Below, one piece after another: positions 30,964 through 59,419 of a stretch of 64,000 bases of DNA. This DNA is from an uncultured Eubacteriales bacterium. Its GTDB lineage: Bacteria > Acidobacteriota > Aminicenantia > Aminicenantales > Aminicenantaceae. The stretch is taken from assembly GCA_964410125.1 (NCBI GenBank), contig CAYPGQ010000005.1, forward strand, positions 21,395 to 85,394. The letters run 5' to 3'. Each line of letters opens with the position of its first letter. Within the stretch, counting starts at the first letter, position 1. The position numbers were made by a program, and so were the translations under genes. Below the pieces are notes generated by a model. It was not told the origin of the DNA, searched no databases, and saw only the letters and a list, made by a program, of their open reading frames with translations.

Positions 30964-30976
30964 TTAAAGGCCTTGA

Positions 30977-35209: not shown

Positions 35210-35263
35210 ATAGCTAAAAAAGCCTGATTGACATTCTTTTTTAATTGAATATTATAGGAACAA

Positions 35264-36576: not shown

Positions 36577-36736
36577 GCCAATGCTGTCAATTTAAAACTG
36601 TCCTTAAATAACCTTCTATTTCATCAAACGTTCCCAGCATACACGACGTTGCGACTGAAGGGAGCAATGTCCCGAAGGGCGAGGGCAATATAACCCGTAG
36701 CGTATATGCTGTGCTATATGAAGTGGCGGGATCATT

Positions 36737-39283
36737 TTATCCCTTCAATGCTGAAATTAATTCTTTAACACTTTTAAATATGTATTTTTCAAAGTCTTCC
36801 TGACCTACTCTCATGAATGACCACTTACTCCCCGATAGACCCATAGCATCCTTGCACCATTTTTTCATCCTTTTGTCCTTATGCTCAACATCAACATCTT
36901 CTCTTCCTTTTGTTTCAATAATTAATCGTTCGCTCTCGTCAATTGTCACTAAAAAGTCGGGGTAATATAATCTAAGGTTATCCTTTGAATCTTTATACTC
37001 TACAAAGAACCCTATTTTGGGAACGATTTTACTGAAAGCCTCTACATCCTCAGCTCTGTCTAAAAATTTGGCAAAATCTAGCTCAAAATCATTATCACAT
37101 GGCACATAGTTAAAAATGCATCTATTGGCTAAATAAACCAATTTTGACCATACAAAAGGTCTAGTATCCGAGAGTCTTATGACATCCCTCTTTTCGGGCT
37201 CTCTTTCGGTGAAAGTCATATCTCTGAATGCATTTATGAATAAACTTATCAATTGTTCTTGAACTTCAGGAGAACTCAACTTATAAAGAACTCTGGGGTC
37301 TTCAAGGTCCACTTTCTCTGTAAACAATTTTTCCTCAACATATCTTTTCACCACGGGATAAAAACTTGCAAAGGCACCACCTATTTTTAGTTGTTTAAGT
37401 ATCTGGTCTGTATAATAAGCGATTACACTTTTGGAATCCTGAGGCACAGGCAAATCCCATTTTCTCTTTATAACTTCCATCCCTTTGAGCATATCCACAG
37501 CAATATATTCCATTTCTAAGCTTTTATTTTCTAAAGGAATCTTCAAGAAAGTTAGATTATCAATCTCTATTTCATCCAAATAAAATTCTCTTATGAGAAT
37601 TCTTGGACTCAGGATCGGTATTTCAATGTCCTTATCCAATTTATTTTCATCTATAAATATGGTGGTTAAATTAATCGACTTCCTGATGTCAAATTCGGCA
37701 AACTTTATATCTTCCTGATTTTCTAATTCTTCAAGAATATCTATCAGCCCGGGAGGTCCAATGACTTCGAGAACATTTACGGATTTGACTATATTTGCAT
37801 CTTCTTCTGGAAACATCTTCCTTAAGCCTCTTCCAATAACTTGTTCTGGAAGTACTTTTCTTTTTGAAGTATAAGACCGTAGTCCCACAATCACATTTAC
37901 ATTTCTCACATCCCACCCCTCATTTAACATTAATGTGCTGACTATTGCCTCGTAGGGATTTTTTTCAGGGTCAGGGTTATCAATAGTCTTTGCAAACTCT
38001 CTCGCCTTGGGCAAGTCTGCTTTTTTTACTTCTCCAGTACTATCCGTGTGTATCAATAATACTTTATCTTTAAGGTCTGGAACAGCAGAGTTCACATACC
38101 CAAATATTTCGTCTGCCTCCTTGTTCTCAGGGCATTGAAAGAAAAGCACAGGCTTCTTTGATAAGGGTCTCAATGCCTTTTTGTATTCTCGCCATCTTCT
38201 TATTCCCGCATCAATCCATGCTCTATATCTCTCAACAGCTTTAGTTGAAGCAATCTCGGAAGCATCTTTGACTATACCCTTTAGTGGTAATTTTACGATG
38301 TTCATTTCAATTGCTTCCTTGAGTGAGAAGTCCACGACAATCCATGGGAATAGGGCACCGGTCTCAGTTTTAGGCGTAGCCGAGAAGTCCAACTCCATAT
38401 TAATGCCTTTACCGGATTGAGAAACTAGATCTTTGTTAAGACCTAAAAGTATTTTCTTCCATGCCTTTTCAAAACTGTATATATGGTGGGCTTCGTCCTT
38501 CAAAATCATGATATTAGAGCAGGAAGTCAAAACCTCTTTTATTCTATTTTCTTGATAAATATCAGAAACATTATAAACTTCTGGCAATTCCATAACTTTA
38601 TCTACATACTCTTCTACTTCTTTCTTTTTGCTCTGCCGTTGTTCTAACTGCTGAATATTGGTTAAAAATAGCACACCCTCAGGAATAACATGAATTGGGT
38701 CTTCCTTAAGGATTACTTTTAAGTCGAACTCCTCTTGCCATTCTGGTGGAACAATCGGCAATTCTCTAAATATTTTTCCATCCTTAAAATCTCTGCAAAG
38801 CCTATCATAAATGACATTTTTCTCACCAGCGATAACCAGAAACTTGGATGTGTAATCATCTTTGTTTTCTCTCTTATGATTAAAGTAAGACCAGACTGTT
38901 GTTAATATCATCACAAAAGTTTTACCGGAGCCAGTTGCCATCTTGAATGCATAAAGAGGATATTGGTCATAAGAAGGGTCATACCCTTGTATGGGTCCCG
39001 CTCCAAAGTCCCTTGCCATATCTATAAAGTTTCTCTTTTTCATTACTTCATAAACATAAATCAGTGTTTCAATCGCTTCTCTCTGGCAGAACCAGAACTT
39101 GAAAGGCTCACCATCTACAATATGATCTTCACTAAACCAGAATCGCAACAAACGACGGCTGGTATCTGTTATGTTGGGATAGTCGTCTTCTCGCCAAGTG
39201 ATTACTGCTTTTCTTAGTTCATTAACCAAATATGCCTTACTTGGTCGTCTTTGTTCTGGGTGTAAGAGTTCAGTTGATTTCAT
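36737..39283 (-). CDS. Type III restriction enzyme Res subunit (SF2 helicase + PD-(D/E)xK endonuclease)
   Basis: Walker A MATGSGKTFVM, DEAH box ILKDEAHH, helicase motif VI-like VIGRGLR, and a C-terminal IIETKG endonuclease motif. Confidence 0.7.
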   Translation of the reverse strand: MKSTELLHPEQRRPSKAYLVNELRKAVITWREDDYPNITDTSRRLLRFWFSEDHIVDGEPFKFWFCQREAIETLIYVYEVMKKRNFIDMARDFGAGPIQGYDPSYDQYPLYAFKMATGSGKTFVMILTTVWSYFNHKRENKDDYTSKFLVIAGEKNVIYDRLCRDFKDGKIFRELPIVPPEWQEEFDLKVILKEDPIHVIPEGVLFLTNIQQLEQRQSKKKEVEEYVDKVMELPEVYNVSDIYQENRIKEVLTSCSNIMILKDEAHHIYSFEKAWKKILLGLNKDLVSQSGKGINMELDFSATPKTETGALFPWIVVDFSLKEAIEMNIVKLPLKGIVKDASEIASTKAVERYRAWIDAGIRRWREYKKALRPLSKKPVLFFQCPENKEADEIFGYVNSAVPDLKDKVLLIHTDSTGEVKKADLPKAREFAKTIDNPDPEKNPYEAIVSTLMLNEGWDVRNVNVIVGLRSYTSKRKVLPEQVIGRGLRKMFPEEDANIVKSVNVLEVIGPPGLIDILEELENQEDIKFAEFDIRKSINLTTIFIDENKLDKDIEIPILSPRILIREFYLDEIEIDNLTFLKIPLENKSLEMEYIAVDMLKGMEVIKRKWDLPVPQDSKSVIAYYTDQILKQLKIGGAFASFYPVVKRYVEEKLFTEKVDLEDPRVLYKLSSPEVQEQLISLFINAFRDMTFTEREPEKRDVIRLSDTRPFVWSKLVYLANRCIFNYVPCDNDFELDFAKFLDRAEDVEAFSKIVPKIGFFVEYKDSKDNLRLYYPDFLVTIDESERLIIETKGREDVDVEHKDKRMKKWCKDAMGLSGSKWSFMRVGQEDFEKYIFKSVKELISALKG

Positions 39284-40439
39284 CGCTTGTCACCTTGCAT
39301 CGGGGTATGGATAATATAAATTCCGTTTCCGTTGCATTTAACTTAATCTCTTTGTTTAATCTTTCTCTTATCGTTTTAATCATTCTGGGAACACCACTAC
39401 CGATATCTGTTACCATCCCAATTTTCAAAAGTAGATTATAAATAGTTGGATTTCGAAGGACATGACAGGATATCTTCATGCTATCTATAGTAACTGTATT
39501 AGGTAACCTTCCTGGCGTTCTGATTTCTATTCTGTCCTCAAATATGAATAATCTTATCGGAGCATTAATTGTATAATCTCGATGAGCTATCGCATTTACA
39601 ATCCCTTCTCTTAAAACTTTTTCAGGAATTTCAGGGTATAATTCTGATTCAAAACCTTTTATTTTGTGTTCTTCCTTTATATACAACTTCAGAAATTTTA
39701 ATGAGTTCTCAAGTATATCCGGAATTTTTGCTTCTAAATCTTTTTTATCAGATGGAGGAATAGAAACATCTATACCAGGTATGTAAGCGGCTATAATCTT
39801 TGCGTATGGAATAAATTGCTGAGGGTTTTTTCCAAAAAATAATATCCCAGCAATTGTAAGTTTTTTCTTATTTGTAATAACTTTAAGATTTTTGAGATAA
39901 TTCTCAATTAAACTTTCTTCTGGAGAAATATCTAAATATTTCTCCAGAAAATATATAAAGTAATCCATGTTAAGGCTGCCAAGTGGGGTTTTAGAGATAG
40001 GGGTCTCGTCATAATAAATGCTTCCGCTTGTTTGATAAAGCCTCCTAACTTCTAGCCATGAGGCTTGCCTACATCTATTCCCTGACTTAATATAATAAAG
40101 ACCACTTTTTGTTCGATAAGGTCTTTGCTCCCCTTTAGGAATATTGATAATTAAAACAATTTCACCATCCATATCCACTGTTTCTGGGAGAATACTAATA
40201 GGAGATTCACATCTATTGAATGCAACATCATCAATCTTTCTTACTGCTTCATCCAAATCTTCAACTCCTACAATATCACCTGAGTTGCCAATACCAATTA
40301 TTAATTGCCCACCATCTGTATTTGCAAAACAGACAATTGATTTTGCGAGAGTTTCATTATCAGGTAATCTTTCCTTGAACTCGGTATGTAAATTTTCACC
40401 TTTTAATATTTTTTCCTGTAGTTCCAATGTATCCATCAA
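39270..40439 (-). CDS. AlbA_2 / Schlafen-like divergent-AAA protein with a C-terminal HATPase-like domain
   Basis: N-terminal NLHTEFKERLPDNE...IVCFANTDGGQLIIGI is typical of the AlbA_2 domain. The C-terminal domain resembles HATPase_c_4. Its start overlaps the upstream gene by 4 nt and its end overlaps res. Confidence 0.55.
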   Translation of the reverse strand: MMDTLELQEKILKGENLHTEFKERLPDNETLAKSIVCFANTDGGQLIIGIGNSGDIVGVEDLDEAVRKIDDVAFNRCESPISILPETVDMDGEIVLIINIPKGEQRPYRTKSGLYYIKSGNRCRQASWLEVRRLYQTSGSIYYDETPISKTPLGSLNMDYFIYFLEKYLDISPEESLIENYLKNLKVITNKKKLTIAGILFFGKNPQQFIPYAKIIAAYIPGIDVSIPPSDKKDLEAKIPDILENSLKFLKLYIKEEHKIKGFESELYPEIPEKVLREGIVNAIAHRDYTINAPIRLFIFEDRIEIRTPGRLPNTVTIDSMKISCHVLRNPTIYNLLLKIGMVTDIGSGVPRMIKTIRERLNKEIKLNATETEFILSIPRCKVTSDEIN

Positions 40440-43159
40440 ACTCCCCCATATTTTTCTGCTCTTATTCTGAATGCTTCTTCTCCACCTTCCATAATATTTT
40501 TTACATCTGCCCTAATATCTTCTTTATCAATAGAGCCTTTGTTATTAATAACGCACCTTTCATTTTTAGTCTCTAAAACAAGAACCAATTCAGAGTCTCC
40601 TAAGACAGGGATGTTCGCATTATGTGTAGCAATAAATAATTGTCTTTTCCCCTTTATTTCTCTAAGGATTTTCACTACGTCCTCGTATATAAAACGGTTA
40701 TCAAGGTCCTCTTCAGGCTGGTCAAGAACAACAATCCTATCCTCTTGAGCAAATAGAAGCAATAATAAGGCAGTAGCTTTTTGACCAATAGAAAGTTTAT
40801 TAATTAATTTATATTCTTCATTCACTTTCAAAAATATTTCAATTTTGTCCTCGGGAAAAAAAGTTTCAAGCTCATAAAGTCTTTCGGAATCTTTAAACCA
40901 TTCTAATATTCTACTGGACATTGCCTGAGTGAGATTGAATTCTTCACGCAATTTCTGCTCATTACCCTTGATATATTGGGAAAGCAGAAGACCATCGGTA
41001 ACTTTATTGGGTGATTTAACCAACGCTTCAATAGCATCGCTTGAAACTTTTGAGCCTTTTAATAAGTTTTTTAAATCTTCCATAAAGTTGTCTCTTTCTT
41101 CTTCATATTTCACCTCAATTTTGAGTCTTCCTTTTAAGGCATCGTTTATTTTTTCAAGTTGTTCTTTTCTTATATTAAAAATATCATGCCTCTTCTTACC
41201 TATTTTATTCTTCGATTTCTCCCTATCATTTTCCAATTTTTCAATTTCCATTTCTAGCCTTATTAATTCTTCAATTAACGGTATTAACTTTGCCCTTTCC
41301 TTAGTCAATCTTTCGAGTTCGTCTGGTTTAAGTCCTTTCTCGGCCAATTCTTTTTTTATTTTTTGAATTTTTGTTTCTACTTTTTTCTTTTTTTCTAACC
41401 ATTCAGCATACAAGCCTTCAATACTTTTTCTGGTCTGGTCTGTTGTCTTGGAAAGCTGTTTTTTACTTTGCTCAAATGCTCTTTTAATTTGACTTATCTC
41501 TCCAGCTACCTTTTCCAGTATAAATTTATTTTCACTCTTGCCTCTCTTTAAATTATTTTCTAAATAGTTTAGTTCGGATGCAGATTCATCAAAAAAGAAA
41601 AGCATTTTTTCGTTTATTCCATCAAGTTTTTCAATTGCATCTTGTAATTTTTCTTCATCATCTACTATGTTAGTCCACCTTCTGAGTCTTTCTTCTACTT
41701 TCATACCTTTATAAACTTTTATTCCTGCTTCTATTCCCTTTAATCTTTGCTCATACTCTTCCCTTTTTCTCGTCTTTTCTTTAAGAGCTAAAAGCTTTCT
41801 TCCATTTTCTCTTAATTGTTCAATTAACCTCTTGAATTCCTCATGTAAATGCCTTATCCTCTCTCCTATTAATTCATCAATTAATTGGAGTTGAAAAGTA
41901 GGGGTAATAGAAAGAAAATAGAGTTCCTTTTGACCTATTATAATCGGATATTTTGCTTCTTCGAACAAACTCTGTATAGAAAAACCTGTCTTCACACCAC
42001 TTTCATCAATAATTTCTGTATCTTTCCCTATTGTCCTTTTTATCTCGAATTCCTTTTTCTCTTTTCCATAATATCTTTCAATAAAGACAGAAAGCTCCCC
42101 TCCACTTCCAACAACACTCTCTACAAAATCCATTCGGAAAGATTTATCTGCATAAATTGGTAAATCCATAACATATCGCATAGTTTCTATGATAGCCGAT
42201 TTACCCACACCCCTTCCTCCAATAAATGTATTTAGTTCAGGATTGAATAAAATTTCTATATCCCTCAGAAAAGTTGAGCCATTGATTAGTATCTTTGATA
42301 TTCTATTATGATAAAAAGAAGGACATTCATAAGTCTTCACCCTTACTTCTGGGTCGTGTAGAGCTATTTTTAAAGCACCAATGTTAAAAGAACTTAATTT
42401 ATAATATGTGGTTCTTAATTTACCATCCCTCTTTTTAGTGCCTATATCGTCAAGACTTTTAGGGTCAGTATTTTCAAGGATTGCTATTTTTTTAAAATAA
42501 TCAGATGGAAGTTCATTTGTAGATATAAGTTTATTTTTTCCTTCCTCAGAGATATATTCAATAGCATCAGGCTTTACATTCATCAAATACTTTGCAGATT
42601 GGGAAGGATTATAAGTATGAAGAAGTCCTTTATCATTTTCTAGGTGTGGAAATACAACCAAACATTTATATTTTTCTCGAATTTTACTTATCAACTTTTC
42701 CAGTTCTAATTCACTTTCAATATCTCTATGTTTTCTTCCGTCAACTAAGGATTTTTGTGGATTCTTGTCTAAACTGTGTAGAAATGTATTTAAACCTTTA
42801 ATATCCACATTTTGCTCAAAAATTAACAACAAATGAAGACCATATTTCCCACTTAATTTTAATGAAAGCTCAACTCCTGGAAATATTACAATTCCTTTAT
42901 CTTTAGCCTTATTCTTTATTAACTCAAACCAATCCTTTCTCAATCCGTTATAATCTGTAATAGCTCCTATCTTAATCTGCGCTTCTTGTATTTTCTTTAT
43001 ATATTCTTCTACTAATTTTTCACACTCGTTATTGGAATCTAAATTAATCCCTGGTGGTAATGTAAGACTTTCTACACCTGGAGAATGCAGATGTAAATCT
43101 GTCTTCACCCAATTTGCCCCATTATAACTTTTGTCATTCATAGTAATTAACTCTTTCAT
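40436..43159 (-). CDS. PHP-domain phosphoesterase fused to a Rad50/SMC-like ABC ATPase with a long coiled coil
   Basis: N-terminal DLHLHSPG and FPGVELSL PHP motifs. Walker A IGGRGVGKSAII at about residue 316. A coiled coil of about 350 aa. C-terminal signature SIGQKATALLLLLFA, Walker B VVLDQPEEDLD and H-loop IATHN. Confidence 0.5.
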   Translation of the reverse strand: MKELITMNDKSYNGANWVKTDLHLHSPGVESLTLPPGINLDSNNECEKLVEEYIKKIQEAQIKIGAITDYNGLRKDWFELIKNKAKDKGIVIFPGVELSLKLSGKYGLHLLLIFEQNVDIKGLNTFLHSLDKNPQKSLVDGRKHRDIESELELEKLISKIREKYKCLVVFPHLENDKGLLHTYNPSQSAKYLMNVKPDAIEYISEEGKNKLISTNELPSDYFKKIAILENTDPKSLDDIGTKKRDGKLRTTYYKLSSFNIGALKIALHDPEVRVKTYECPSFYHNRISKILINGSTFLRDIEILFNPELNTFIGGRGVGKSAIIETMRYVMDLPIYADKSFRMDFVESVVGSGGELSVFIERYYGKEKKEFEIKRTIGKDTEIIDESGVKTGFSIQSLFEEAKYPIIIGQKELYFLSITPTFQLQLIDELIGERIRHLHEEFKRLIEQLRENGRKLLALKEKTRKREEYEQRLKGIEAGIKVYKGMKVEERLRRWTNIVDDEEKLQDAIEKLDGINEKMLFFFDESASELNYLENNLKRGKSENKFILEKVAGEISQIKRAFEQSKKQLSKTTDQTRKSIEGLYAEWLEKKKKVETKIQKIKKELAEKGLKPDELERLTKERAKLIPLIEELIRLEMEIEKLENDREKSKNKIGKKRHDIFNIRKEQLEKINDALKGRLKIEVKYEEERDNFMEDLKNLLKGSKVSSDAIEALVKSPNKVTDGLLLSQYIKGNEQKLREEFNLTQAMSSRILEWFKDSERLYELETFFPEDKIEIFLKVNEEYKLINKLSIGQKATALLLLLFAQEDRIVVLDQPEEDLDNRFIYEDVVKILREIKGKRQLFIATHNANIPVLGDSELVLVLETKNERCVINNKGSIDKEDIRADVKNIMEGGEEAFRIRAEKYGGV

Positions 43160-45198: not shown

Positions 45199-45297
45199 TT
45201 CCTCTTTTACACCTCAATACCGCCATTTCATATAACATTTTTCGCTGTTTATGAAGTGCGAGCGATAGCGATCATCTGGGTGAGCGGAGCGAACCAC

Positions 45298-45310
45298 AAA
45301 CACCGTGTTA
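45298..45310. promoter_or_regulatory. Dyad-symmetric 13-mer AAACAC-C-GTGTTA about 100 bp upstream of the mod operon start
   Basis: Shares the 12-mer AACACCGTGTTA with 55998..56010, where it forms a perfect 6-1-6 palindrome (TAACAC-C-GTGTTA) about 60 bp upstream of the ATPase operon. Confidence 0.25.
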
Positions 45311-45358
45311 GATGAAGTTGCTGCCGATCTATTTTTTATCTTCTCTCTATAAATCACG

Positions 45359-47707: not shown

Positions 47708-47711
47708 AGCC

Positions 47712-48590: not shown

Positions 48591-48868
48591 TTGTTTTTAT
48601 TATATATATTTTTATTCTAAAAGCCTTTCGTCTTTGTGTATCTGCTAGACAAATTTAATTTGTGTCTAATTGTGACACCCCGAATAATGAGAATGTAAAT
48701 ACTATCAACTATTACCCCATTAAGTAGAAGTTGTGAAATCATAGTTTATACTACCTTACTTTTCCAATAAAAACTTTAAATTCCATTGGTTAACCTTTTG
48801 TCAAATACAAAGACTGGAGCCCATCCTTCCCATACTCTCATTACACCATCCTGTCACTTCTGAATAAG

Positions 48869-50785: not shown

Positions 50786-50801
50786 TTATTCCGCTCCTTC
50801 G

Positions 50802-51824
50802 TTACTTCAAATGTGGGTAGGAATCAGTATATTTCCATGCAGGATCGTAAAAGAACATTAGAAATATTTTGTTCTTAACCTTCTTAGCCATTTTAAGACA
50901 TGCCATTAGGGTCAAGCAGGAGCTTCTACCAACGAGTTGTTCTTCTATTCCATGCAGAAGTTTTTCACCTTCTTTATAAGTGTCTTGTGGGAGTAGAATA
51001 AAATCATCTATTATATCTAAATTAATATCTAATTTCTCTGGAGGCAAACCGAATGGCGCGATTCCGTATATCTCATGAATAAGTTTTTCGCGGTCTAACA
51101 CTTCCCCTTTTGCTTTTAGTGTTTGAATCATAGGAAGCTCAGAAGGTTCCACAACAATAACTTTTTCTGAATTCAGAGTTGCCTTCAGATATTCTCCACT
51201 CCCACTTATAGTGGTACCTGACCCTACAACTCCTACATGAAAGTCAGGCATTACACCATAATTCTTTTTAATAATAAACAAAGTATCCTGCATAAGTTTA
51301 TGAAAAGCCTTTTTAGCACTTGGGCTTATTTTAGTAACACAGTATAGCCGATGAGGATTCTCTCCGATTTTTCCGCCCTTTTTTACTTTGTCCTCATTTA
51401 AAATTTCCTCTAACTTTTTGACATAGCCTTTTGCATATTCACCAGCAGGAGAAAAGACTACTTCGCAACCATATTCTTTTATCTGCTCTACTCTTGCCTG
51501 AGGGGTGTCTTTGTGGGTAATGACTGTGCACTTTTTGTATCCCAGTAAGGTCGCACATTTTGCAAATGCGGCTCCTGCATTCCCCGTGCTGGCTTCTATC
51601 ACTGGTGTAATACCTGCTACAATATATCCTTTCTCCTCAGCCTCCTGAAACAAAATTGGATAAATCCTGTCAAATGTGCTCCCCGTAGGATTCTTCCATT
51701 CTTCAATTGCGAATATCCTGTTTCTATTAGGTATTTCTATCTTCTTGATTTCATATACCGAGGCGCGAATTACACTTATCTCTTTATACAGTTTTTCTCT
51801 ACTTTCAGGTAACATTGTCTTCAC
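50802..51824 (-). CDS. Cysteine synthase-fold (PLP fold type II) protein lacking the Schiff-base lysine
   Basis: Aligns to the CysK/threonine synthase signature across NPTGSTFDRI (canonical NPSFSVKCRIG / NPTGSFKDRG), ASTGNAG (TSGNTG) and GVVGSGTTISG (GVGTGGT). The PLP lysine position is Phe. It overlaps the SBP gene by 4 nt. Confidence 0.6.
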   Translation of the reverse strand: MKTMLPESREKLYKEISVIRASVYEIKKIEIPNRNRIFAIEEWKNPTGSTFDRIYPILFQEAEEKGYIVAGITPVIEASTGNAGAAFAKCATLLGYKKCTVITHKDTPQARVEQIKEYGCEVVFSPAGEYAKGYVKKLEEILNEDKVKKGGKIGENPHRLYCVTKISPSAKKAFHKLMQDTLFIIKKNYGVMPDFHVGVVGSGTTISGSGEYLKATLNSEKVIVVEPSELPMIQTLKAKGEVLDREKLIHEIYGIAPFGLPPEKLDINLDIIDDFILLPQDTYKEGEKLLHGIEEQLVGRSSCLTLMACLKMAKKVKNKIFLMFFYDPAWKYTDSYPHLK

Positions 51825-52942
51825 TCTCCCACTTCTACAAATTGTCCATTTTTTATCGTTTTGAGCATTACTTGTGCTATGATATCTCCGTTCTTATCAA
51901 AACTTATAGGCCCGATCGCACCCGGAAATTTTTTAAGTGAGTACAAACCTTTTTTTATATCCTCAGAACTCCCGCTAGAAGTGGCAATTACTTCATACAA
52001 TACTCTAATTGCATCATATCCAAGAGCAGAAAAGAGATCGGGAACTTCACCATATTTCTTTTGGTACTTTTCAGAGAAGCTTTTTGCTACCTTTAATGTT
52101 TTCGGAGTGAATTTCTGCATCGTGTATATAACGCCTTCAGCTGCATTACCAGCTATTTTTATCACTTCCGGGGATTCAATCCCTATAGTGCTAAAAATTC
52201 TATCTTGAAATCCCAATTCCTTTGCCTGTCTGAGAAAATGAGCCATTTCTAATGAATGACCGATAAGATAAACTCCGTCATAGTGAGATTGTCGTAACTT
52301 TGCAATAACTGTCCGAAAATCAGATGTTCCCTGCTCATACCCCTCAGAATAACCGATGCTACCTCCCACTGACTCATATTTTTTCTTAAAAACCTCAAAG
52401 TTACCTGCACCATAGTCTGTATTCACAAAAATCACAGCCAATTTGCTTATCTTATATGTCTTAATAGCTTCTTCCGCCATTGCCTCAACTTCTAACTTTC
52501 CACTTAATCTTAATCTAAAAATATTCTCTCCGGCTTCTGTAATAAGTGGACTGGTGGCACCTGAAGATAAAAAGACAACCTTTTCTTGCTCCGCTATTGG
52601 TGCACAGGCCATAACAATAGAACTTCCCACCCCCCCGGTTACCGCCGCCACTTTCTCCGCTCGAATCAGCTTGTTAAAAGCACTTACCCCTGCCTGAGGG
52701 TTTGTTTGAGAATCTTGAACAATAAGTTCTACCTCTATAGGCTTATTCTGATTAATCTCTTCTACTGCAATTTGCATTCCCTTGTAGTTTCGTTCGCCTT
52801 GTGGAGCTAGTGGGCCTGTTAAGGGTAATATCACCCCAATCTTTATCTCCCCTTGCTCTTTCTTTGTCTGGGTGACAAAGAACACGATGGCTAAAGCCAC
52901 AACCACCACGACACCGATTCCGATCCATATGTTCCGTTTCAT
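51821..52942 (-). CDS. ABC transporter substrate-binding protein (LivK / Peripla_BP_6-like)
   Basis: N-terminal TM/signal, then IKIGVILPLTGPLAPQG typical of branched-chain amino acid/amide binding proteins. Confidence 0.75.
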   Translation of the reverse strand: MKRNIWIGIGVVVVVALAIVFFVTQTKKEQGEIKIGVILPLTGPLAPQGERNYKGMQIAVEEINQNKPIEVELIVQDSQTNPQAGVSAFNKLIRAEKVAAVTGGVGSSIVMACAPIAEQEKVVFLSSGATSPLITEAGENIFRLRLSGKLEVEAMAEEAIKTYKISKLAVIFVNTDYGAGNFEVFKKKYESVGGSIGYSEGYEQGTSDFRTVIAKLRQSHYDGVYLIGHSLEMAHFLRQAKELGFQDRIFSTIGIESPEVIKIAGNAAEGVIYTMQKFTPKTLKVAKSFSEKYQKKYGEVPDLFSALGYDAIRVLYEVIATSSGSSEDIKKGLYSLKKFPGAIGPISFDKNGDIIAQVMLKTIKNGQFVEVGE

Positions 52943-53019
52943 AATTCACTGCCTCCTTATTTCAAAAATTTCATCTTCCGCATTTTAGAATCTTTCAAAT
53001 TTCCAATTATATTATTAAG

Positions 53020-53562
53020 TCAATGATCCTGGGCCATAATTCCGACTTTTCTCAACTGTTCCTTAAGATATTGCTCACTCCTGTTCAATATACCCTTGAA
53101 GTGTTTCCGAACCACAATATCAAATTTAGGACAAAGTTGACTTTCCAAATCCTTCATCCGGTTAGGCCTTAAACTTTCAATCAACATCTCTCTTGTTGGG
53201 ATTTCATCCATCGGGATTTTCGCAAGAATCCAGTTTTCAAGAGGGGCAAGACGTAAGACTGCTATAACAGGTTGGTAGCCATCGTGAGTACGGTCACGAA
53301 GAGCCTGCACATTATCAGTGGTGAGAGGAATTGATAATTTCTCTGTGGTTTTTACCTCAACTGCAAACTTTTGATTAGATTCCGATGTTATATCAATATC
53401 AACTCCTTGCACGCCTCGTTCTACAATATTAGTAAAGCCCATTTCATGGAAGCTGAGAGCCAGTAGTTTTTGTACAATTTTGCCAAAAGGTCCAGATGGT
53501 GTACCTTTGATTCCAAACTTTTTCTGCAACTTCTGTAAAAGTTCAAGAGTTTCTACTTTCAT
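53020..53562 (-). CDS. Small PD-(D/E)xK-fold nuclease-like protein
   Basis: GVDIDITSESNQKFAVEVKT matches the D-x(n)-E-x-K restriction-endonuclease-like core. Its start is 3 nt after the upstream ATPase stop. Confidence 0.4.
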   Translation of the reverse strand: MKVETLELLQKLQKKFGIKGTPSGPFGKIVQKLLALSFHEMGFTNIVERGVQGVDIDITSESNQKFAVEVKTTEKLSIPLTTDNVQALRDRTHDGYQPVIAVLRLAPLENWILAKIPMDEIPTREMLIESLRPNRMKDLESQLCPKFDIVVRKHFKGILNRSEQYLKEQLRKVGIMAQDH

Positions 53563-53564
53563 AA

Positions 53565-55742
53565 TTATATTTCCTTCGAAATTTTCGGGCCGGAATCCGG
53601 TGCCCAGTCCGAAAGCTTATATATAGTTTTGACTTTGGTAATATTATCCTTTAAAAGCTGTTGCATTTCAGCATCCATAGTAGAGACTGTAATGTTTTTT
53701 ATATCGCTGAGTTCATTAAAGATTTCTACAAGACGAGCTTTTTGCTGTGAATCTAAACTTTGCGATGAGTCGTCCATCAAGATAAATCCGAGAGGATGAG
53801 AATCTCCAGATGCTTTAGTCAAACCTAAGAAAATAGACAAAGCAAGGCTATTCAGGTCTCCTTGACTTAGAACAGGAATGGGTCTCTTGCCGTCTTGGTC
53901 TTCGAAAATATAAAAGTTTCCGCCAGTTTTTTTATCCTCATCTACTTTAATATTGAGTGTTTGAAAAGCCGGGTTGTTGGTTATTCTACGAAAGTAGCGG
54001 CCAATTGCACTCCTGGCTGAATCAATTTTTTCTTCTGCTTCCTTTAGCATACAAGATTTGATAATTTTACTAAGTTCTTCCACGTCTCTTACTAGATTTG
54101 AGACATCGGTTCTGATTTTCTCTTGTTTCTGGTATTCATTGGTTTTTTGAATTTGGTTTATTTCTTCGAGTTTATTCTTAAATAGCAAAATATCATAAAG
54201 TAAGTTCATTATATCTGTTTTTTCTAAAATGGCGTCAATTGTAACTTGCTTATTCTTAATAGCATCTGCAATCTCTTTTAAACGTGAATCAATGTTTTTT
54301 ATTTCTATGGATAATATTGCAGCAGGATCATCCTTATCAGTCAACTCTTTATGTAGAAATTCTGAGATATTATTGATTGCCTTCTTTAATTCCTCTTTTT
54401 CTCTTCTAGCGTCTTTCTCTAAGTGGACAAGTTCCTTCTTCAATCTTTCAAAATCGGTTTTCTTTTTGTCTAATTCTGCCTGTTGTTTTTCTAACTCCTG
54501 CACTTGGGCTGTAATTTTTTCCTCCCATTCCTTTCGTAAATGCTCAAGCAAATTGGACACCTTTTCTCCGCATAAGGGACAAATGTCAGCATCAGAGGGA
54601 GCAGCTAATTTCAGAATGGAAATACCTTCTTCAATCAATTTCGCTTTCGGGCTTATTCGCTTAATTTCTTTATTAATAGCATCAATCTCTTCAAATGCTT
54701 TTCTTATTTTATTGTCGATTTCATCTTTGTTGCCATTTTCTTGTTCAAAATCCTGAAGTTCCTTCTTCTTTGATTTAAGATTCAGGTATTGAGTCTCATA
54801 TTTACTTTTGAATGAAACCATTTCGCTTCTCTTCCTTTGTTTTTCTGATTGTTCTTTCACGTCGGGAGATTCTGCCCAAAGACGGCTGCACTCATTCTTA
54901 ATATCGGTAATAAATGACTCGGTATTTTTCCAATCAGAAGGAGGAGAAATTGCCGTTGTTGTAAGTCCCAATAGTCGGGCAAAGTTACCAATGTCTTTTA
55001 TGGTTGATTCTACCAGTTCAAGCAGTTTATTTTCGTTTAATTCTTCTTCACTCAGTCCCTTCTCTTTGGCTTTATCTCTTTTATTATCCAGGTCTTTTTG
55101 CCTTATCTTTATCCCTTCTTGTACACGGGTCTGAAATTTATTAAATTCTTCTGTAAGCTCTTTCTGAAGCTTTAAGACGTCAGACTTCTTAATACCATCA
55201 AGAATATTCCGATAATCTGATAAACCTAAGAGGCGGTCCATTACAGCACTCTGTTCGCTTGGTTTTTGTATCACAAAGTCGTGGATAGTCTCCTGGTGTT
55301 GATATACGGTAGTAGCAAAGTCTTTGAATGAAACCCGAAGTAACTTTGCTATTTCTTGGTCACCCTCGTCTCCTTCTTTCTCTGTTCCATTTGGCAAAGA
55401 TATTTTTATACTTTTGCCTTTTTTGCCTTTTCCCTTGGCTTCGGCTCGAGTAATAGTAAAGATTCCCTGTTCTCCCTCGATTTTCAAATTTACCTTGGCC
55501 TTCTCAGAATTATCATTCACAACTCTCCAGGCCATCTCACCTGTGCCTACACGTTCACGAATTCCAGATTTTTCACCAATGCACTCATCTCCATACAAAC
55601 ACCATTCAATTGCATTTAATACACTACTCTTACCTTGATGATTTCCCCCATGTAGTAAAGTAACGGGATTTTCGAATTCGATAGAGGTTTTTTGAGTAAA
55701 TCCTCTGAATCCTTCTATTTCTACTTTTTTAATCTTTAACAT
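53565..55742 (-). CDS. Compact Rad50/SbcC-like ABC ATPase with coiled coil and a CxxC zinc hook
   Basis: N-terminal EIEGFRGF...HGGNHQGKSSVLNAIEWCLYG (Walker A). A central coiled coil with ICPLCGEK at its midpoint. C-terminal signature LSQGDLNSLALSIF and Walker B FILMDDSSQSLD. Confidence 0.6.
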   Translation of the reverse strand: MLKIKKVEIEGFRGFTQKTSIEFENPVTLLHGGNHQGKSSVLNAIEWCLYGDECIGEKSGIRERVGTGEMAWRVVNDNSEKAKVNLKIEGEQGIFTITRAEAKGKGKKGKSIKISLPNGTEKEGDEGDQEIAKLLRVSFKDFATTVYQHQETIHDFVIQKPSEQSAVMDRLLGLSDYRNILDGIKKSDVLKLQKELTEEFNKFQTRVQEGIKIRQKDLDNKRDKAKEKGLSEEELNENKLLELVESTIKDIGNFARLLGLTTTAISPPSDWKNTESFITDIKNECSRLWAESPDVKEQSEKQRKRSEMVSFKSKYETQYLNLKSKKKELQDFEQENGNKDEIDNKIRKAFEEIDAINKEIKRISPKAKLIEEGISILKLAAPSDADICPLCGEKVSNLLEHLRKEWEEKITAQVQELEKQQAELDKKKTDFERLKKELVHLEKDARREKEELKKAINNISEFLHKELTDKDDPAAILSIEIKNIDSRLKEIADAIKNKQVTIDAILEKTDIMNLLYDILLFKNKLEEINQIQKTNEYQKQEKIRTDVSNLVRDVEELSKIIKSCMLKEAEEKIDSARSAIGRYFRRITNNPAFQTLNIKVDEDKKTGGNFYIFEDQDGKRPIPVLSQGDLNSLALSIFLGLTKASGDSHPLGFILMDDSSQSLDSQQKARLVEIFNELSDIKNITVSTMDAEMQQLLKDNITKVKTIYKLSDWAPDSGPKISKEI

Positions 55743-55754
55743 CGTCTACCTTCA

Positions 55755-55940
55755 TCATAGCGTTTTTTCAAGATTCTCAAGTAGTTGTTCATAATCCTTT
55801 TTGATTTTATCTATTCGAGAGTTGAGCGTTGATTTTATCTGCTCAACTCCACCTTGTTCATAGGATTCGCATATTTCTTGCCAGAGATTTCTCAATTTCT
55901 CTTCTTTTATTTCTTTTTGAACTTTTTCTTTATAGGTCAT
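55755..55940 (-). CDS. Small (61 aa) charged coiled-coil protein
   Basis: Short ORF 12 nt upstream of the ATPase gene. Helical, K/E-rich. Confidence 0.3.
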   Translation of the reverse strand: MTYKEKVQKEIKEEKLRNLWQEICESYEQGGVEQIKSTLNSRIDKIKKDYEQLLENLEKTL

Positions 55941-55997
55941 AGATTTCTCCTTTATCTCTTAATTTGTAGCTCCAATTGATAATTATCAGCGATTTCA

Positions 55998-56010
55998 TAA
56001 CACCGTGTTA
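55998..56010. promoter_or_regulatory. Perfect 6-1-6 palindrome TAACAC-C-GTGTTA upstream of the small-protein / Rad50-like ATPase operon
   Basis: Read directly from the sequence. Partner site at 45298..45310. Confidence 0.25.
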
Positions 56011-56034
56011 TGTGATAGGCAATCAATTTCAATT

Positions 56035-56625
56035 TTAATCCCTCTTTCGACAAATATGATTCATCTTTTTTTGGAAATTATCTCTAAGGTTTGTATTTCT
56101 TTCATCTTTTAATTGTTCAAGGTAATGATAAAAATCGTCTTTAAGTTTTTTATGAAATTCAGTTCTGTTGATAACCATTTTATTATTGATATTTTGAACG
56201 AGTGGACCAATAGAACAAACTAAAGAATCACTTTGTATTTCAGCTTGGTGTAGAATTCCACATCTATAATTCTTGTAGAATCGCATTGCCATATCCTGTG
56301 AAAAATACTTTTTGAAAGATGGACTTGTTGTTAAGAATTTTTTAAACGCTTTTTCAGATTTATTCTTTGTAGTTTTCCACCCTTCAATAAATGATTGTAG
56401 TGTTTCAATTAACAGACAATCGATAGATAATATTGTAAATCCATATTTCTTTTCTTTGGACAGTTTATTTTTTTCTTTTTCTATTAATAAATCTACTGGT
56501 TCAAAATATCTGTTCTCTATTCTCATATTTAATATTTCTATGGCTCGGTTCCAGTCAGGACTGGATAAATCATTTAAATTCAATCTGAGCCATTCGTTAT
56601 GCTGTATTCCTGGAGCAATTTCCAA
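56035..56625 (-). CDS. Hypothetical protein (196 aa)
   Basis: ORF in the AT-rich island. No recognisable motifs. Confidence 0.35.
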   Translation of the reverse strand: MEIAPGIQHNEWLRLNLNDLSSPDWNRAIEILNMRIENRYFEPVDLLIEKEKNKLSKEKKYGFTILSIDCLLIETLQSFIEGWKTTKNKSEKAFKKFLTTSPSFKKYFSQDMAMRFYKNYRCGILHQAEIQSDSLVCSIGPLVQNINNKMVINRTEFHKKLKDDFYHYLEQLKDERNTNLRDNFQKKMNHICRKRD

Positions 56626-56757
56626 ATATATTCCTCCCTATTGAGTGCCTTTCATATAACGTTCCTAGCATAAAACAAGTTTTTGTAAATTAAATATATG
56701 GGTGAGTACCACCAGGCATGAACCTTTTGTGCTATGTTAGGCGATGTCCACACCCTC

Positions 56758-58236
56758 TTATGCTCCAAGAACCCATTGGACTGTGAGTTCCTTTTCATCA
56801 AAGAGACTCTTCGCAGTCGTAGCATCGTCTTTTGCAAGACGTGCAGCAATTTCACCTGACGGATCAGGGTCGTCCCATATCTTGTGGTCGAATATCTTCT
56901 TGACAAATCGTCTGAAGTAATTGAATTCCTCATCTGGAATGACACGGTAGAAAAAGAGCGCTCTCTCTTCGTCTGTATAATTTTTCAGGTGTATATTAAT
57001 TGCATCTCTCAATAGAATAGCCCAAGCCCTCACGGCTCCCGCGCTAAAGATTCTTTCAGCTTTTTTGTGCACAGCATCAGCACGTTCAGGCGCCCACTTA
57101 TCTTCTAATCCTTCTTCAGCGATAATAGTCATAAGTTTGACTAGATTGCGCTTTTCGTCCTTTCGAAAGTCGGTATCGGATTCGAATTCTTCATCAACGG
57201 GCGGCGACACCAGCATGTGTTGAAAAAAAGTCTTTTTTATTCGAGCAAATGTCAAGGGTTGCTTTCGACCTCTGTGCTTCTCTGATAGATACCTTGACAA
57301 CTTGTTTGACTCATCGTTTACTATTTCATTGTACAAAGCTAGTGCGATTTCATTTCTAGCTTGTGCCCATGTCTTTTGCTTTGAGTGGAAGAGGAAATTG
57401 TAGAAACCTAATTCCGACTTTTCTCCTTCCGTATCCATATATTCTATCCAGTCCTCTCCAAAGATATCGGCATATTTCTGCATCAATTCATGAGAATAAA
57501 ATGACATTTGTCTGTATGGCCCGTGTGCATCAAGATTGGTTTCCTTTAGCAATCTCTTGTCTGGGGTGATGTATATTTTACATTCTATCATTGGACGCCC
57601 AGCCCAAATTTGAGCTGCTGCTTTATGTTGTCCGTCGAAGAGATAAAGAGTGCCACTTTCATCGATTCTACAAATTGAGGGGGATATCTGTGTGTTAATT
57701 TGAAAGTGCCGATATAACTTCCATAAATTTGGCTCTCGTAGGGGGCGGGGTTGTAACTCAATGTCATTTCCGATGTATTCAACTGGTAATGTTCCGTAGA
57801 AATATTTCCAATTGGTTGTTGCGCATATGTAAAGTGGAAAGTCATGCCTGGAATCCTTATAAAATAGGCTGATATGCTCTTCTTTGATTTCGTAGCTGAG
57901 TCGTTCTCCACAATGCCCCTTTTTATGACGGATTAAATCGTCAAGAAATTTAGGCTCCCCACCTTCGAAAAATGCCGCGAGTTCTATCTTGTCACGATAC
58001 TCTTGAAGGCTCATTGTACCAATCGTGCGATGGTGACGTTTGCAAACGGGAGCAATATTATCCAAGCTAGTTGGACCACCTGAGGAAAATGGTTTAATGT
58101 GATGAAATTCGATAGACGCATCCTCAGGAATAGGTTCCCCGTCAACAAAGCACCTTCGCTCATGCTGATCGAGAACCTTTTGCTTTTCAGTTTCTGAGAG
58201 CTGTCTTTTTTTGGCCATTTCTTCCCTCCTTTTCAT
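56758..58236 (-). CDS. HNH endonuclease domain fused to a DGQHR / ParB-like (DUF262-like) domain
   Basis: N-terminal CFVDG...HHIKPFSSGG...LDNIAPVCKRHH (HNH). Mid-protein LYLFDGQHKAAAQIWAGR, a DGQHR-type ParB/DndB-like motif. Confidence 0.5.
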   Translation of the reverse strand: MKRREEMAKKRQLSETEKQKVLDQHERRCFVDGEPIPEDASIEFHHIKPFSSGGPTSLDNIAPVCKRHHRTIGTMSLQEYRDKIELAAFFEGGEPKFLDDLIRHKKGHCGERLSYEIKEEHISLFYKDSRHDFPLYICATTNWKYFYGTLPVEYIGNDIELQPRPLREPNLWKLYRHFQINTQISPSICRIDESGTLYLFDGQHKAAAQIWAGRPMIECKIYITPDKRLLKETNLDAHGPYRQMSFYSHELMQKYADIFGEDWIEYMDTEGEKSELGFYNFLFHSKQKTWAQARNEIALALYNEIVNDESNKLSRYLSEKHRGRKQPLTFARIKKTFFQHMLVSPPVDEEFESDTDFRKDEKRNLVKLMTIIAEEGLEDKWAPERADAVHKKAERIFSAGAVRAWAILLRDAINIHLKNYTDEERALFFYRVIPDEEFNYFRRFVKKIFDHKIWDDPDPSGEIAARLAKDDATTAKSLFDEKELTVQWVLGA

Positions 58237-58340
58237 TTTTCATATGTTATGGAGTGAATGTTGCCTAACCATTATGCGAAAAAGAAACTACTATTTTCCC
58301 CTGTTGTATATCTTTGCCGATTTTTAGATTTGCCATAAAT

Positions 58341-58556
58341 TTATATTATTAGTTCCTTCCAACTTACATTTAATGCTTTGGCGATTTTTGCAACTGTCTG
58401 AACAGAAGATTTTTTAACAACATTGGACTCTAATTTTGTTAAAGTGGTATAAGGAATGTCGGCTTTTCTTGCAAGTCTATCTTGTTTAAGTTCTTTTTTC
58501 TCCCGAAATTTTTTTACATTATCTACAATCATATTTGTAATTGATATTGTTTCCAA
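58341..58556 (-). CDS. XRE-family helix-turn-helix transcriptional regulator (71 aa)
   Basis: LKQDRLARKADIPYTTLTKLESN is a typical HTH_3 segment. The size resembles RM controller or cI-like proteins. Confidence 0.7.
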   Translation of the reverse strand: METISITNMIVDNVKKFREKKELKQDRLARKADIPYTTLTKLESNVVKKSSVQTVAKIAKALNVSWKELII

Positions 58557-58796
58557 TTTTTGATTGTAAATTTAGGGTAACCCCCTCTGACATTCAATAT
58601 TATACCAAATCCAAAAATAATTTGCAGCAAATTTTTGATCCCAGTTTAAAATTGATGGGCAAATATTGCCCCCACCCAAAATTTACCAAAAAAAGAAATC
58701 TGCGGGGAAAAGAATTTTGTTTTTTCTTCCTGCTTTATCCCAAAAAGGGGAGGCAGGCTCGGAGTGCAGGAAATAGCAGACAGCCAAAGTCTAATA

Positions 58797-58873
58797 TGGT
58801 CGGGACGGGCGGATTTGAACCGCCGACCCCACGCACCCCAAGCGTGTGCGCTACCAGACTGCGCCACGTCCCG
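58797..58873 (-). tRNA. tRNA-Pro (anticodon GGG), CCA encoded
   Basis: The minus-strand sequence CGGGACG-TG-GCGC-AGTCTGGTA-GCGC-A-CACGC-TTGGGGT-GCGTG-GGGTC-GGCGG-TTCAAAT-CCGCC-CGTCCCG-A-CCA folds into a canonical cloverleaf with anticodon GGG and G37. Confidence 0.8.
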
Positions 58874-58933
58874 ACCAAAAGGACCATTTATTATAACAAA
58901 GATTGGAAATCAAGCAAGTGTGGGATGAAGCTT

Positions 58934-59287: not shown

Positions 59288-59419
59288 CTGAGTCTAACCC
59301 TGGGCCGATGGGTGTACCAGCTTGTAAAATAACATGGATTCTCCTGTTCGTCAAGGTAAAGGAAATTCCCCATTTATATTGATATCTGGTATAATTCCTG
59401 CGGAAGGATAATCGGGAGC

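Follow-up and report, generated by a model that had tools for sequence, protein, structure and literature searches.

How does a block of some 22 kb of AT-rich genes, all read from one strand and accompanied by neither an integrase nor a transposase, come to lie beside a tRNA gene? The question is raised by a stretch of 64,000 nucleotides (nt) from contig CAYPGQ010000005.1 of an uncultured Aminicenantes bacterium. The whole of this stretch is called the window below, and the block in question, at positions 36599-58795 between surE and a tRNA-Pro(GGG) gene, is called the island. Our reading, to which we give a probability of about 0.78, is that integron-type gene cassettes, arrayed without an integrase, make up the island, that the island was acquired recently and varies between strains, and that it resembles a cluster of attC sites lacking integron integrase (CALIN). 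The array probably has five cassettes, a pair of which became fused when an attC site was lost, and carries three probable anti-phage modules and one transporter/metabolic operon.

The island differs in composition from both flanks. Its GC content is 0.366, while that of the left flank is 0.464 and that of the right flank 0.439, and the sliding profile falls from 0.43-0.50 to 0.31-0.40 across ~36.6 to 58.8 kb. GC at third codon positions (GC3) is 0.326 +/- 0.047 in 15 island genes and 0.511 +/- 0.053 in 30 flanking genes (Mann-Whitney p = 7e-8). Measured against the flanks, tetranucleotide usage is two to three times more distant inside the island (0.33-0.47) than outside it (0.12-0.20). The initial annotation had proposed an AT-rich island of about 22 kb and had named uniform composition as the result that would speak against it; on calculation the composition is not uniform and the proposal holds. 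Cassette by cassette, the GC content of the island is a mosaic of 0.29-0.40, and its overall value equals that of 99 metagenome loci carrying the site family described below (0.369 +/- 0.035). All 17 genes, from Res (36737) to a helix-turn-helix (HTH) gene (58532), lie on the minus strand, so that the single orientation noted earlier is correct and the earlier count of about 20 genes is slightly high. The announced contents, namely restriction-modification (R-M), SMC-like ATPases, nucleases, a regulator and a transporter cassette, are all present. ARAGORN and Rfam (RF00005, 63.6 bits) agree with the first placement of the tRNA-Pro(GGG) gene at 58797..58873 on the minus strand. It is a flanking core gene that adjoins merR in 19 relatives, and the island, which begins 1 nt past its 3' CCA, lies on its 3' side. 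At the Rfam gathering thresholds this tRNA is the sole match in the window, Rfam having no attC family.

The limits of the island are given by alleles that lack it. The closest species-level relatives, judged by the flanking RarA/MgsA protein (66-89% identical), are Candidatus Aminicenantes metagenome-assembled genomes (MAGs). The order surE - tRNA-Pro(GGG) - merR - rarA is kept in about 20 Aminicenantes species, in which the tRNA gene always adjoins merR and no island gene occurs within 10 kb of the locus. An exact look-up of RarA leads to metagenome contigs of the same population. In three of these (L003, L004 and L005), with identical RarA, surE adjoins tRNA-Pro directly via a 35-bp spacer. 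In blastn alignments the three empty alleles follow the window as far as 36598 and resume at 58796, which sets the boundaries at 36598/36599 and 58795/58796; the left edge first proposed, 36600, is within 2 nt of this. As judged from blastn, junction sequences and composition, an island of 22,197 bp with minus-strand genes replaces the 35-bp spacer. A different species, L007, has kept the spacer; the empty state is therefore ancestral, and the island would be a gain. The right flank of the empty contigs (58796-64000, 5,205 bp) is 99.96-100% identical to that of the window, and the island is therefore recent. The earlier description as old and decayed is not upheld: the island is polymorphic among contigs with 99.9-100% identical right flanks and all its large open reading frames (ORFs) are open. 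Its absence from this locus in about 20 species and three conspecific contigs likewise disposes of the possibility, raised at the outset as a refutation, that the same gene set stands in all relatives.

The right part of the island recurs in contigs L001 and L002 and the left junction in L087-L089. The metagenome sample ERZ25073474 holds an empty contig (L003, ~41x, with a left flank diverged by 6-8%) and an island contig (L089, ~18x); both alleles therefore coexist in one community. That a single sample yields both forms, that the data are metagenomic throughout and that the GC content of the island is like that of other organisms' contigs would suit an assembly or binning artefact, in which foreign low-GC DNA was joined to an Aminicenantes backbone in a chimeric contig. 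Such an artefact is extremely improbable. Among the matches listed, the left junction (surE|Res) occurs in at least three contigs from three samples, with two further similar places, and the right junction (HTH|tRNA) in at least two contigs, with one further similar place. The junction contigs come from both ENA and JGI, were made by different assemblers and are 99.9-100% identical, and one of them, NODE_117 (82 kb; L001 and L088), spans both junctions.

The left flank contains a recombination breakpoint. L004 differs from the window there at 12 positions. Eleven of them are confined to the 106 bp that adjoin the island (36493-36583), and the very same 11 mismatches are found in L003 and L005. 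The tract 36493..36598, which comprises the 5' end and leader of surE on the minus strand, is island-linked, these 11 mismatches setting it apart from each of the three empty alleles. Beyond it to the left, L004 has the haplotype of the window, and L003 and L005 are diverged by 6-8%. The clustering of the mismatches therefore places a breakpoint in the surE 5' end, between 36447 and 36493. These comparisons indicate that the whole block is gained or lost by homologous recombination and not site-specifically. Island and empty alleles would be swapped by one crossover in surE and another in or beyond the highly conserved tRNA gene.

The right end of the island calls for a comparison with integration into the tRNA gene. 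tRNA genes are the classic targets of islands. The island comes within 1 nt of the tRNA 3' end, its composition is foreign, and in another locus (L098) a tRNA gene likewise has a related R-M/Trl module close on its 3' side. We nevertheless consider it very unlikely that a classical integrative island entered the 3' end of tRNA-Pro by means of a tyrosine integrase and later lost the integrase and the far repeat. When the tRNA 3' end (a 25-mer and a 15-mer, with up to three mismatches) was searched for in the whole window, only the tRNA itself and chance-level matches were found, in agreement with the first impression that the far boundary carries no tRNA-derived repeat. The island has no terminal direct or inverted repeats. 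No island ORF matches Phage_integrase in Pfam and no integrase or transposase is present in the island, as had been noted; the array-associated recombinase of other loci, used as a tblastn query, finds nothing in the window. Furthermore, the 35-bp spacer of the empty allele is missing at the far end, which is where integration into the tRNA gene would have put it, flanks nearly identical to those in empty strains speak against an old, decayed element, and the internal attC-bounded cassettes are left unexplained. Between the tRNA gene and the HTH gene, alignments delimit a leader of 263 bp (58533..58795, minus strand), of which the final ~45 bp (58752-58795) tentatively resemble a diverged copy of the ancestral spacer (CAGGC..GCAGACA..TAATA). 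Of the island type first proposed, a horizontally acquired, tRNA-abutting, integrase-less defence/transporter island stands and a classic tRNA-integrating element does not.

The cassette reading begins with the borders of the modules. These are imperfect palindromes with the ends ...CTTCATATAAC / GCCTAAC and GTTATAT / GTTAGAT...GAAAT. They belong to a family of elements of 95-110 nt that have a variable RYYYAAC-type 5' box, a GTTRRRY-type 3' box at which conservation ends, and a nearly invariant inner stem, CAGCATAAAA / TTTTATGCTG. The two or three inner hairpins of each site covary, with double changes in 9 of 21 predicted pairs, and the sites carry an asymmetric spacer of 4-5 nt. The elements have the architecture of attC sites: an R'' box of the form RYYYAAC, an L''/L' stem, a variable terminal structure, an R' box of the form GTTRRRY and an asymmetric unpaired spacer. 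Exact matches to the 3' arm occur in 99 metagenome contigs, mostly with unrelated genes. A profile built from 61 copies (nhmmer) matches 107 of the compared sequences and has no match in 80 genome loci of other organisms. Apart from the window, 46 loci contain at least two copies (two or three), always co-oriented and spaced 0.3-9 kb apart. Around the sites, 333 ORFs of at least 100 amino acids (aa) lie on the same strand and 74 on the opposite one.

In the window the profile has three matches only; each lies within the island and on the minus strand. E1 (56643..56749; profile 56649-56746, E = 8.5e-18), with the R'' box GCCTAAC and the R' box GTTATAT, aligns with the family including its covarying hairpins. 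E2 (45218-45328; profile 45223-45317, E = 4.9e-4) matches over the full model length, and E3 (36611-36732; profile 36617-36723, E = 1.7e-22) has AGC in place of AAC. E4 (55985-56024, minus strand) is a short remnant of 40 nt without L boxes, whose 5' flank is complementary to the R' side of E1 at 18 of 24 positions. Three attC-like sites and a remnant on the same strand, without an integrase in 64 kb, agree with the CALIN definition of at least two such sites.

In an integron array an attC site is chimeric: the bases that follow G|TT are part of the next cassette, and their pairing partner is the R'' side of the site in which that cassette ends. The sites of the family were examined for this relation in 37 non-redundant pairs of consecutive sites, by comparing the 20 nt after GTT with the reverse complement of the 20 nt before the next AAC. 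The mean complementarity is 11.8 of 20, against 8.0 for a site's own flanks and 8.3 (standard deviation 2.2) for random pairs. For the distal 11 nt, which lie beyond the conserved core, the values are 5.6 versus 2.9 and 3.1 (p = 1e-10 and 1e-8). Cassette-specific extensions of the pairing are found in L118 (TGGCGAATC), L193 (GCGCGCAAA) and L119 (GTTAGGCGA..TATTGCC). A cassette start finds its complement in the 5' flank of the site that closes the same cassette, and the arrays therefore carry the signature of circular, permuted cassettes.

The same signature divides the island. The first cassette junction lies at 58262..58275 on the minus strand and reads G|TTAGGCAACATTCACTCC, with the sense-strand start at 58269; its GTTAGGCAACATT is also found after the recombinase gene in L202, a locus described below. 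Upstream of the junction, a gene for a 63-aa XRE-type HTH_3 regulator (58341..58532, minus strand; Pfam HTH_3 E = 3.5e-12, also called and matched in L001 and L002) sits in the position that the integrase gene has in a complete platform. Cassette 1 (56660..58268, 1.6 kb) starts with GTTAGGCAACATTCACTCC, complementary to the 5' flank of E1 at 14 of 20 positions, and contains the gene of a 492-aa HNH protein and E1. Cassette 2 (56001..56659, 0.66 kb) contains the gene of a 196-aa protein and the E4 remnant, with the pairing of 18 in 24 given above. Cassette 3 (53004..56000, 3.0 kb) encodes a 61-aa protein, an SMC/Rad50-type ATPase and an Hjc-like nuclease. It has lost its own attC site (near 53003) and is hence fused to cassette 4, with which it makes up 10.8 kb; the corresponding trio of L094 has an attC of its own at the end. 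Cassette 4 (45236..53003, 7.8 kb) is a Liv-type ABC transporter operon with E2. Its counterpart in L094 and L107 starts with TTAGATGAAATTGCTGCCGAT, 17 of 20 positions of which can pair with the 5' flank of E2, and the cassette ends in both of these and in the window with ATCGGCAGCAA(C/T)TTCATCTAAC. Cassette 5 (36629..45235, 8.6 kb), the single operon Mod-TrlF-TrlG-Res with E3, starts with TTATATGAAATGGCGG and ends with CCGCCACTTCATATAGC, and the pairing of the two is about 15 of 18 by eye. All five cassettes are read from the minus strand. Past the E3 crossover there is a stub of 30 nt, TTTGATGAAATAGAAGGTTATTTAAGGACA (36599..36628, minus strand), which is missing from the empty alleles and which we read as the start of a further cassette, cut at the island boundary.

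The cassettes are shuffled between arrays. In L094 an R-M/Trl cassette 90% identical to that of the window lies between the SMC trio and the gene of the periplasmic binding protein (SBP), and in the window it follows livF. The homology of L094 with cassette 5 begins exactly at the G of GTTATAT, at window position 45236. In L133 a 94% identical HNH homologue is followed by an attC site and a different cassette occupies position 2. Beside these exchanges, L093/L094 contain before the SMC trio (225-4647) genes for a 60-aa protein and an 828-aa SMC-like ATPase as well as for a 540-aa protein, with attC-like sites between them. A unit of a small protein and an SMC protein may be a recurring type of cassette.

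A tyrosine recombinase is linked to the site family in related loci. Among 147 site-adjacent ORFs, three carry the Phage_integrase and Phage_int_SAM_4 domains, and the proteins of L124 and L151 score above the cut-off of NF040815, 'site-specific tyrosine recombinase/integron integrase'. The best match of the recombinase in PDB is the integron integrase VchIntIA (2a3v, E = 5e-44). At the place of the IntI insert, residues 293-321 of the recombinase (29 aa) face residues 175-245 of VchIntIA (71 aa), and the alignment with XerA is collinear. The ~35-aa IntI-specific domain near patch III, the defining feature of integron integrases (PMC4889954; PMC9668308), is therefore absent. The protein has in addition an extra N-terminus of ~125 aa. 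Homologues or fragments are present in eight site-bearing loci besides L124, and the family is very large, carries the NCBI name 'tyrosine recombinase/integron integrase', and is found in MAGs of Nitrospirota, Acidobacteriota, WOR-3, Stahlbacteria and Thermodesulfobacteriota.

The surroundings of the recombinase gene are those of an integron platform. In L124 the recombinase stop codon is followed after 118 nt by the first cassette, whose initial sequence, GTTATACGCC, is complementary to the flank of the first attC. In L202, a bacterial MAG, ...GTTAGGCAAC comes after the recombinase gene and leads into six small co-oriented ORFs. The intergenic sequences that were read, those behind four of the ORFs, hold canonical-looking attC sites whose R'' is paired with the preceding R' (boxes GCCTAAC / GGCTAAC / ACCTAAC with GTTAGCC / GTTAGGT). 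In both loci 50-120 nt separate the recombinase gene from the attI-like junction, which has the form ..ATGAACAA|GTTATA.. or ..CAAACGA|GTTAGGC.... The unit of recombinase and attI-like junction is found at L124 1730-3100, L202 10001-15400 and L201 10001-11360, with the gene on the strand of the junction and immediately upstream of it, and in L124 and L202 also on the strand of the array. Arrays follow in L124 and L202, and the L201 contig ends before any attC. A tyrosine recombinase that adjoins an attI-like junction and a cassette array is present, then, in related loci, and from this adjacency we infer that an Xer/IntI-related recombinase of other genomes acts on the sites.

Ten site-adjacent ORFs on the opposite strand were also considered as integrases and rejected; they are IS1595 transposases, a weak IS110-like match or unrelated enzymes. 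The IS1595-family transposase genes and the one weak IS110-like ORF that lie beside attC-like sites (L111 664-1518, L156 1385-2239, L177 2249-3103 and L186 691-1776, all opposite to the sites) are possibly insertion sequences that entered arrays.

These loci also bear on the other simple account of the island, namely that it is an ordinary defence island at a recombination hotspot between surE and tRNA-Pro, and that its palindromes are terminators, repetitive extragenic palindromic (REP) or REPIN-like elements or regulatory RNA without a role in mobility. The signature of homologous recombination at the left flank is what such a hotspot would leave, and the same gap holds different inserts in other Aminicenantes species. 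In addition, the minimum free energy (MFE) z-scores of several window copies are not significant, and UUCG-like loops would suit an RNA. Nevertheless, we consider this account unlikely. Start/flank complementarity and homology that breaks exactly at G|TT are not expected of terminators or REPs, and a tyrosine recombinase that has an attI-like junction is linked to the sites. Neither the remainder of the window nor any of 80 other genome loci contains the palindromes, and the repeats of the host are of a different family. The inserts, which occur in five other species, consist of RND efflux genes, a DUF255 gene, a Ser/Thr kinase and methyltransferases. They are of housekeeping type with host-like GC, not defence islands, and the idea of the surE-tRNA gap as a defence hotspot was rejected.

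Several observations weigh against the cassette-array reading. The spacings of the window sites, ~0.66, 10.8 and 8.6 kb, break the operational rule of IntegronFinder that neighbouring attC sites lie under 4 kb from one another (PMC4889954), and the two larger ones exceed the largest known cassettes of ~2 kb, cassettes being described as 'short ORFs' (PMC4889954). The window sites are defined by a home-built profile and not by the published attC covariance model of IntegronFinder. E2 is a weak match to this profile, E4 is a remnant of 40 nt, and no site is found between the gene of the 180-aa nuclease and the SBP gene. The DNA folds of the single window sites E1-E5 have weak MFE z-scores, so that the structure is supported at the level of the family, and the RNA fold of the 138-nt left end (z = -0.3) is not special. 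About 40% of the consecutive site pairs have no clear complementarity. The recombinase of L124 and L151 is without the IntI-specific domain and falls below the cut-off of TIGR02249 (221 bits versus 265, in two stretches). Since no recombinase is encoded in the 64-kb window, the mobility of the window copies is an inference. Finally, neither outer boundary of the island coincides with an attC crossover point, and all the comparison DNA consists of metagenome assemblies.

Taken as a CALIN-like cassette array, the island would have arisen in two ways. Cassettes would be excised as circles and inserted at the G|TT of attC-like sites by a tyrosine recombinase related to Xer and IntI that is encoded in other genomes and not in the window, and the whole array between surE and tRNA-Pro would be gained or lost as a block via homologous recombination in the conserved flanks. 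Coding from a single strand, the missing mobility gene, the mosaic composition and the shuffling of modules would all be explained by such an array.

The largest cassette carries a type III-like R-M system with two inserted genes. The genes for Mod, TrlF, the TrlG-like protein and Res form one operon on the minus strand with overlapping stop and start codons. Mod (43156-45198) matches PF01555 (E = 5e-47) and the PADLOC profile MTase_III PDLC03633 (E = 7e-107). TrlF (40436-43159), with a PHP domain and an ABC-type ATPase, matches NCBIfam NF045780 over its full length (481 bits, cut-off 350) and also resembles the anti-phage protein Ppl. The TrlG-like protein (39270-40439) combines a Schlafen AlbA_2 domain (PF04326, E = 2e-23) with HATPase_c_4 (PF13749, E = 1e-17). 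Res (36737-39283) matches PF04851 (E = 4e-13) and PADLOC REase_III (E = 5e-14); its C-terminal endonuclease reaches 23.5 bits with PF19778 RE_endonuc, just above the cut-off of 23.4, and the whole protein reaches 296 bits with NF046055, for which the cut-off is 800. The N6/N4 methyltransferase of a type III system and its superfamily 2 helicase with an endonuclease are both present, and the usual two-gene mod-res unit is interrupted by the genes for TrlF and the TrlG-like protein. A segment of mod, 44133-44621 (L094 8599-9030), is the only strongly diverged part of the otherwise 90%-identical cassette, a pattern that fits a swapped target-recognition domain of different specificity.

The nesting of TrlF-TrlG recurs. 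The order Mod-TrlF-TrlG-Res is found in L093-95 (90% identity), in L098 (66%; 7001-13531, the four-gene module just 3' of a tRNA gene) and in L099 (52%). In L099 (3974-13920) the TrlF-TrlG pair lies between a Mod and a Res that are unrelated to those of the window, and in L100 (6108-16685) between PglZ and a GajA/GajB-like pair with a DUF1156 methylase. TrlF-TrlG homologues 76-78% identical to those of the window stand alone in a contig of a Methanofastidiosia archaeon, and more distant homologues occur on Pseudomonas plasmids, where the identity to TrlF is 27%. A link between the SMC trio of cassette 3 and the closest plasmid Mod-Res pair (Aminobacter pANY103c) was considered and discarded, the similarity being at the level of the P-loop only.

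The Trl names come from the temperature restriction locus TrlR-TrlF-TrlG of Photorhabdus laumondii (Hapeshi et al. 2020, PMC7554251), where mutations in trlG relieve growth arrest at 36 C. The island shares with this locus adjacent genes for a TrlF-family PHP-ATPase and for a protein of the TrlG architecture, AlbA_2 with HATPase_c_4. It differs in having no TrlR and in that the pair is translationally coupled between Mod and Res. A literature search for TrlF/TrlG as a named defence system gave nothing beyond the Photorhabdus paper. There is a further analogy: the anticodon nuclease PrrC is embedded in the type Ic hsd operon EcoprrI. As in EcoprrI, a second and potentially suicidal module would lie inside an R-M operon. 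The R-M type is different, however, and an AlbA_2 Schlafen-type protein and a PHP-ATPase take the place of PrrC. The analogy suggests that TrlF-TrlG may act as a back-up or guard that fires when restriction is inhibited.

The other modules, all on the minus strand, are of more varied kinds. The 492-aa protein of cassette 1 (56758-58236) has an HNH domain (Pfam HNH, E = 1.2e-6). The 196-aa protein of cassette 2 (56035-56625, gene GC 0.29) and the 61-aa protein at the start of cassette 3 (55755-55940) are gene calls, and these two and the 638-aa protein of cassette 4 match nothing in Pfam, PADLOC or NCBIfam. The 725-aa ATPase (53565-55742) is LmuB-like (PADLOC LmuB PDLC03859, E = 1.1e-49, model positions 2-597 of 611), and Rad50 heads are its closest solved relatives in PDB. 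The 180-aa protein (53020-53562) has residues E48, D55 and E69-x-K71 invariant across 28 homologues, and its AlphaFold model (AF2, pLDDT 91.9) has as best structural matches the archaeal Hjc Holliday-junction resolvases (Foldseek 2wcw, E = 8e-6, TMt 0.71). Motif and predicted structure identify it as a putative PD-(D/E)xK nuclease.

Lamassu systems consist of LmuA, LmuB and LmuC. The trio of cassette 3 is like them in that its ATPase matches LmuB over nearly the full length and is paired with a nuclease. It differs in lacking LmuA and LmuC, in that the Hjc-like nuclease of 180 aa is free-standing, and in the conserved 61-aa protein encoded before the ATPase. With PADLOC (E <= 0.01), neither LmuA nor LmuC is matched by the HNH, 196-aa, 61-aa or 180-aa proteins. 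From their family membership, the R-M/Trl, SMC and HNH modules probably defend against phage.

Cassette 4 encodes, according to Pfam, an SBP (51821-52942), a CysK-like pyridoxal-phosphate enzyme (50802-51824) and LivH, LivM, LivG and LivF (45359-48590), as well as the 638-aa protein (48869-50785, a gene call without assigned function). The gap of 278 bp between the 638-aa gene and livH (48591-48868) has no attC-like match and could hold an internal promoter or a regulatory element. In an island-bearing contig from JGI 3300028837 (L087 3488-3925), livF is called as 145 aa instead of ~240 aa, which suggests decay of the transporter cassette in that strain.

Outside the island the window has repeats and a compositional feature of its own. 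A palindromic intergenic element of ~170-210 nt is present in two copies, 35000-35212 and 63340-63560, which are 74% identical and have terminal inverted repeats, TATCCTGAATTATTCAT / ATGAATAATTCAGG. The element is REPIN-like or like a miniature inverted-repeat transposable element (MITE). It belongs to a family unrelated to the attC-like sites, for which an origin from host REPs or MITEs was considered and dismissed. A milder GC dip at 22000-31000 (GC 0.42; GC3 0.39-0.47) covers genes that look like housekeeping genes (an M48 peptidase, DUF4097, DUF3014, a GATase_7-domain protein and no-hit proteins of 293 and 793 aa), and no mobility or defence signatures were found in it. Two intergenic stretches, 25119-25256 and 28507-28549, match L001 17527-17772 (76% and 93%), which lies downstream of the window on the same contig, and they may be another dispersed repeat.

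A CALIN-like array offers a concrete mechanism for a common puzzle, that of single-strand defence islands without an integrase or transposase. It extends integron-type cassette arrays to Aminicenantes, for which a literature search on integrons gave nothing. It also presents integron cassettes as multi-gene operons, four to five times the sizes used for their definition and detection, which suggests that surveys under-count them. A family of recombinases without the canonical IntI insert is placed at attI-like junctions, and the recurrent nesting of TrlF-TrlG in R-M and BREX-like operons makes the pair a candidate guard or back-up defence module. It is possible, though the balance is somewhat against it, that there is a distinct, widespread class of integrons from which the island is a parked fragment, a class with an Xer-like integrase lacking the IntI domain and oriented in the direction of the array, attC sites conserved in sequence, and operon cassettes of 8-9 kb, among them a complete type III-like R-M with TrlF-TrlG nested in it as a back-up module. 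If so, neither the size limit assumed for cassettes nor the need for an IntI insert would hold for this class, and surveys of the IntegronFinder type, which use the 4-kb rule and the intI_Cterm profile, would miss such integrons systematically.

Among known systems, tRNA-associated integrative islands share with the present one the position at a tRNA 3' end, the deviant composition and the strain-variable accessory cargo. They differ from it in that here there is no integrase and no tRNA-derived direct repeat, and the interior is built of cassettes. Anti-phage systems are known from the cassettes of mobile and chromosomal integrons, and one of these, brc128, is a two-gene cassette of Lamassu-like type (Kieffer et al., bioRxiv 10.1101/2024.07.02.601719); defence systems in integron cassettes are likewise documented in a further report (PMC12614218). 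The cassettes of Kieffer et al. are from Proteobacteria with canonical IntI, whereas the present ones are from Aminicenantes and comprise an R-M/TrlFG operon and an SMC/Hjc-like trio, for which defence is a prediction. The closest counterparts are CALINs, which are common (Cury et al. 2016, PMC4889954; Ghaly et al. 2022, PMC9668308), and sedentary chromosomal integrons. The island resembles them in its co-oriented cassettes that end in RYYYAAC/GTTRRRY palindromes with chimeric R' halves, in sites that are similar within a lineage, like the Vibrio cholerae repeats (VCRs), in the absence of a nearby integrase and in a cassette content that varies between related arrays. It differs in that its cassettes reach 8.6 kb (10.8 kb when fused) and contain whole operons of four to seven genes, in that the spacing breaks the 4-kb rule, in that one attC is lost and another reduced to 40 nt, and in that the array lies in a tRNA/surE gap where blocks are exchanged by homologous recombination. 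It differs from integrons proper in that the recombinase linked to this site family has no IntI domain and is encoded in the same orientation as the array.

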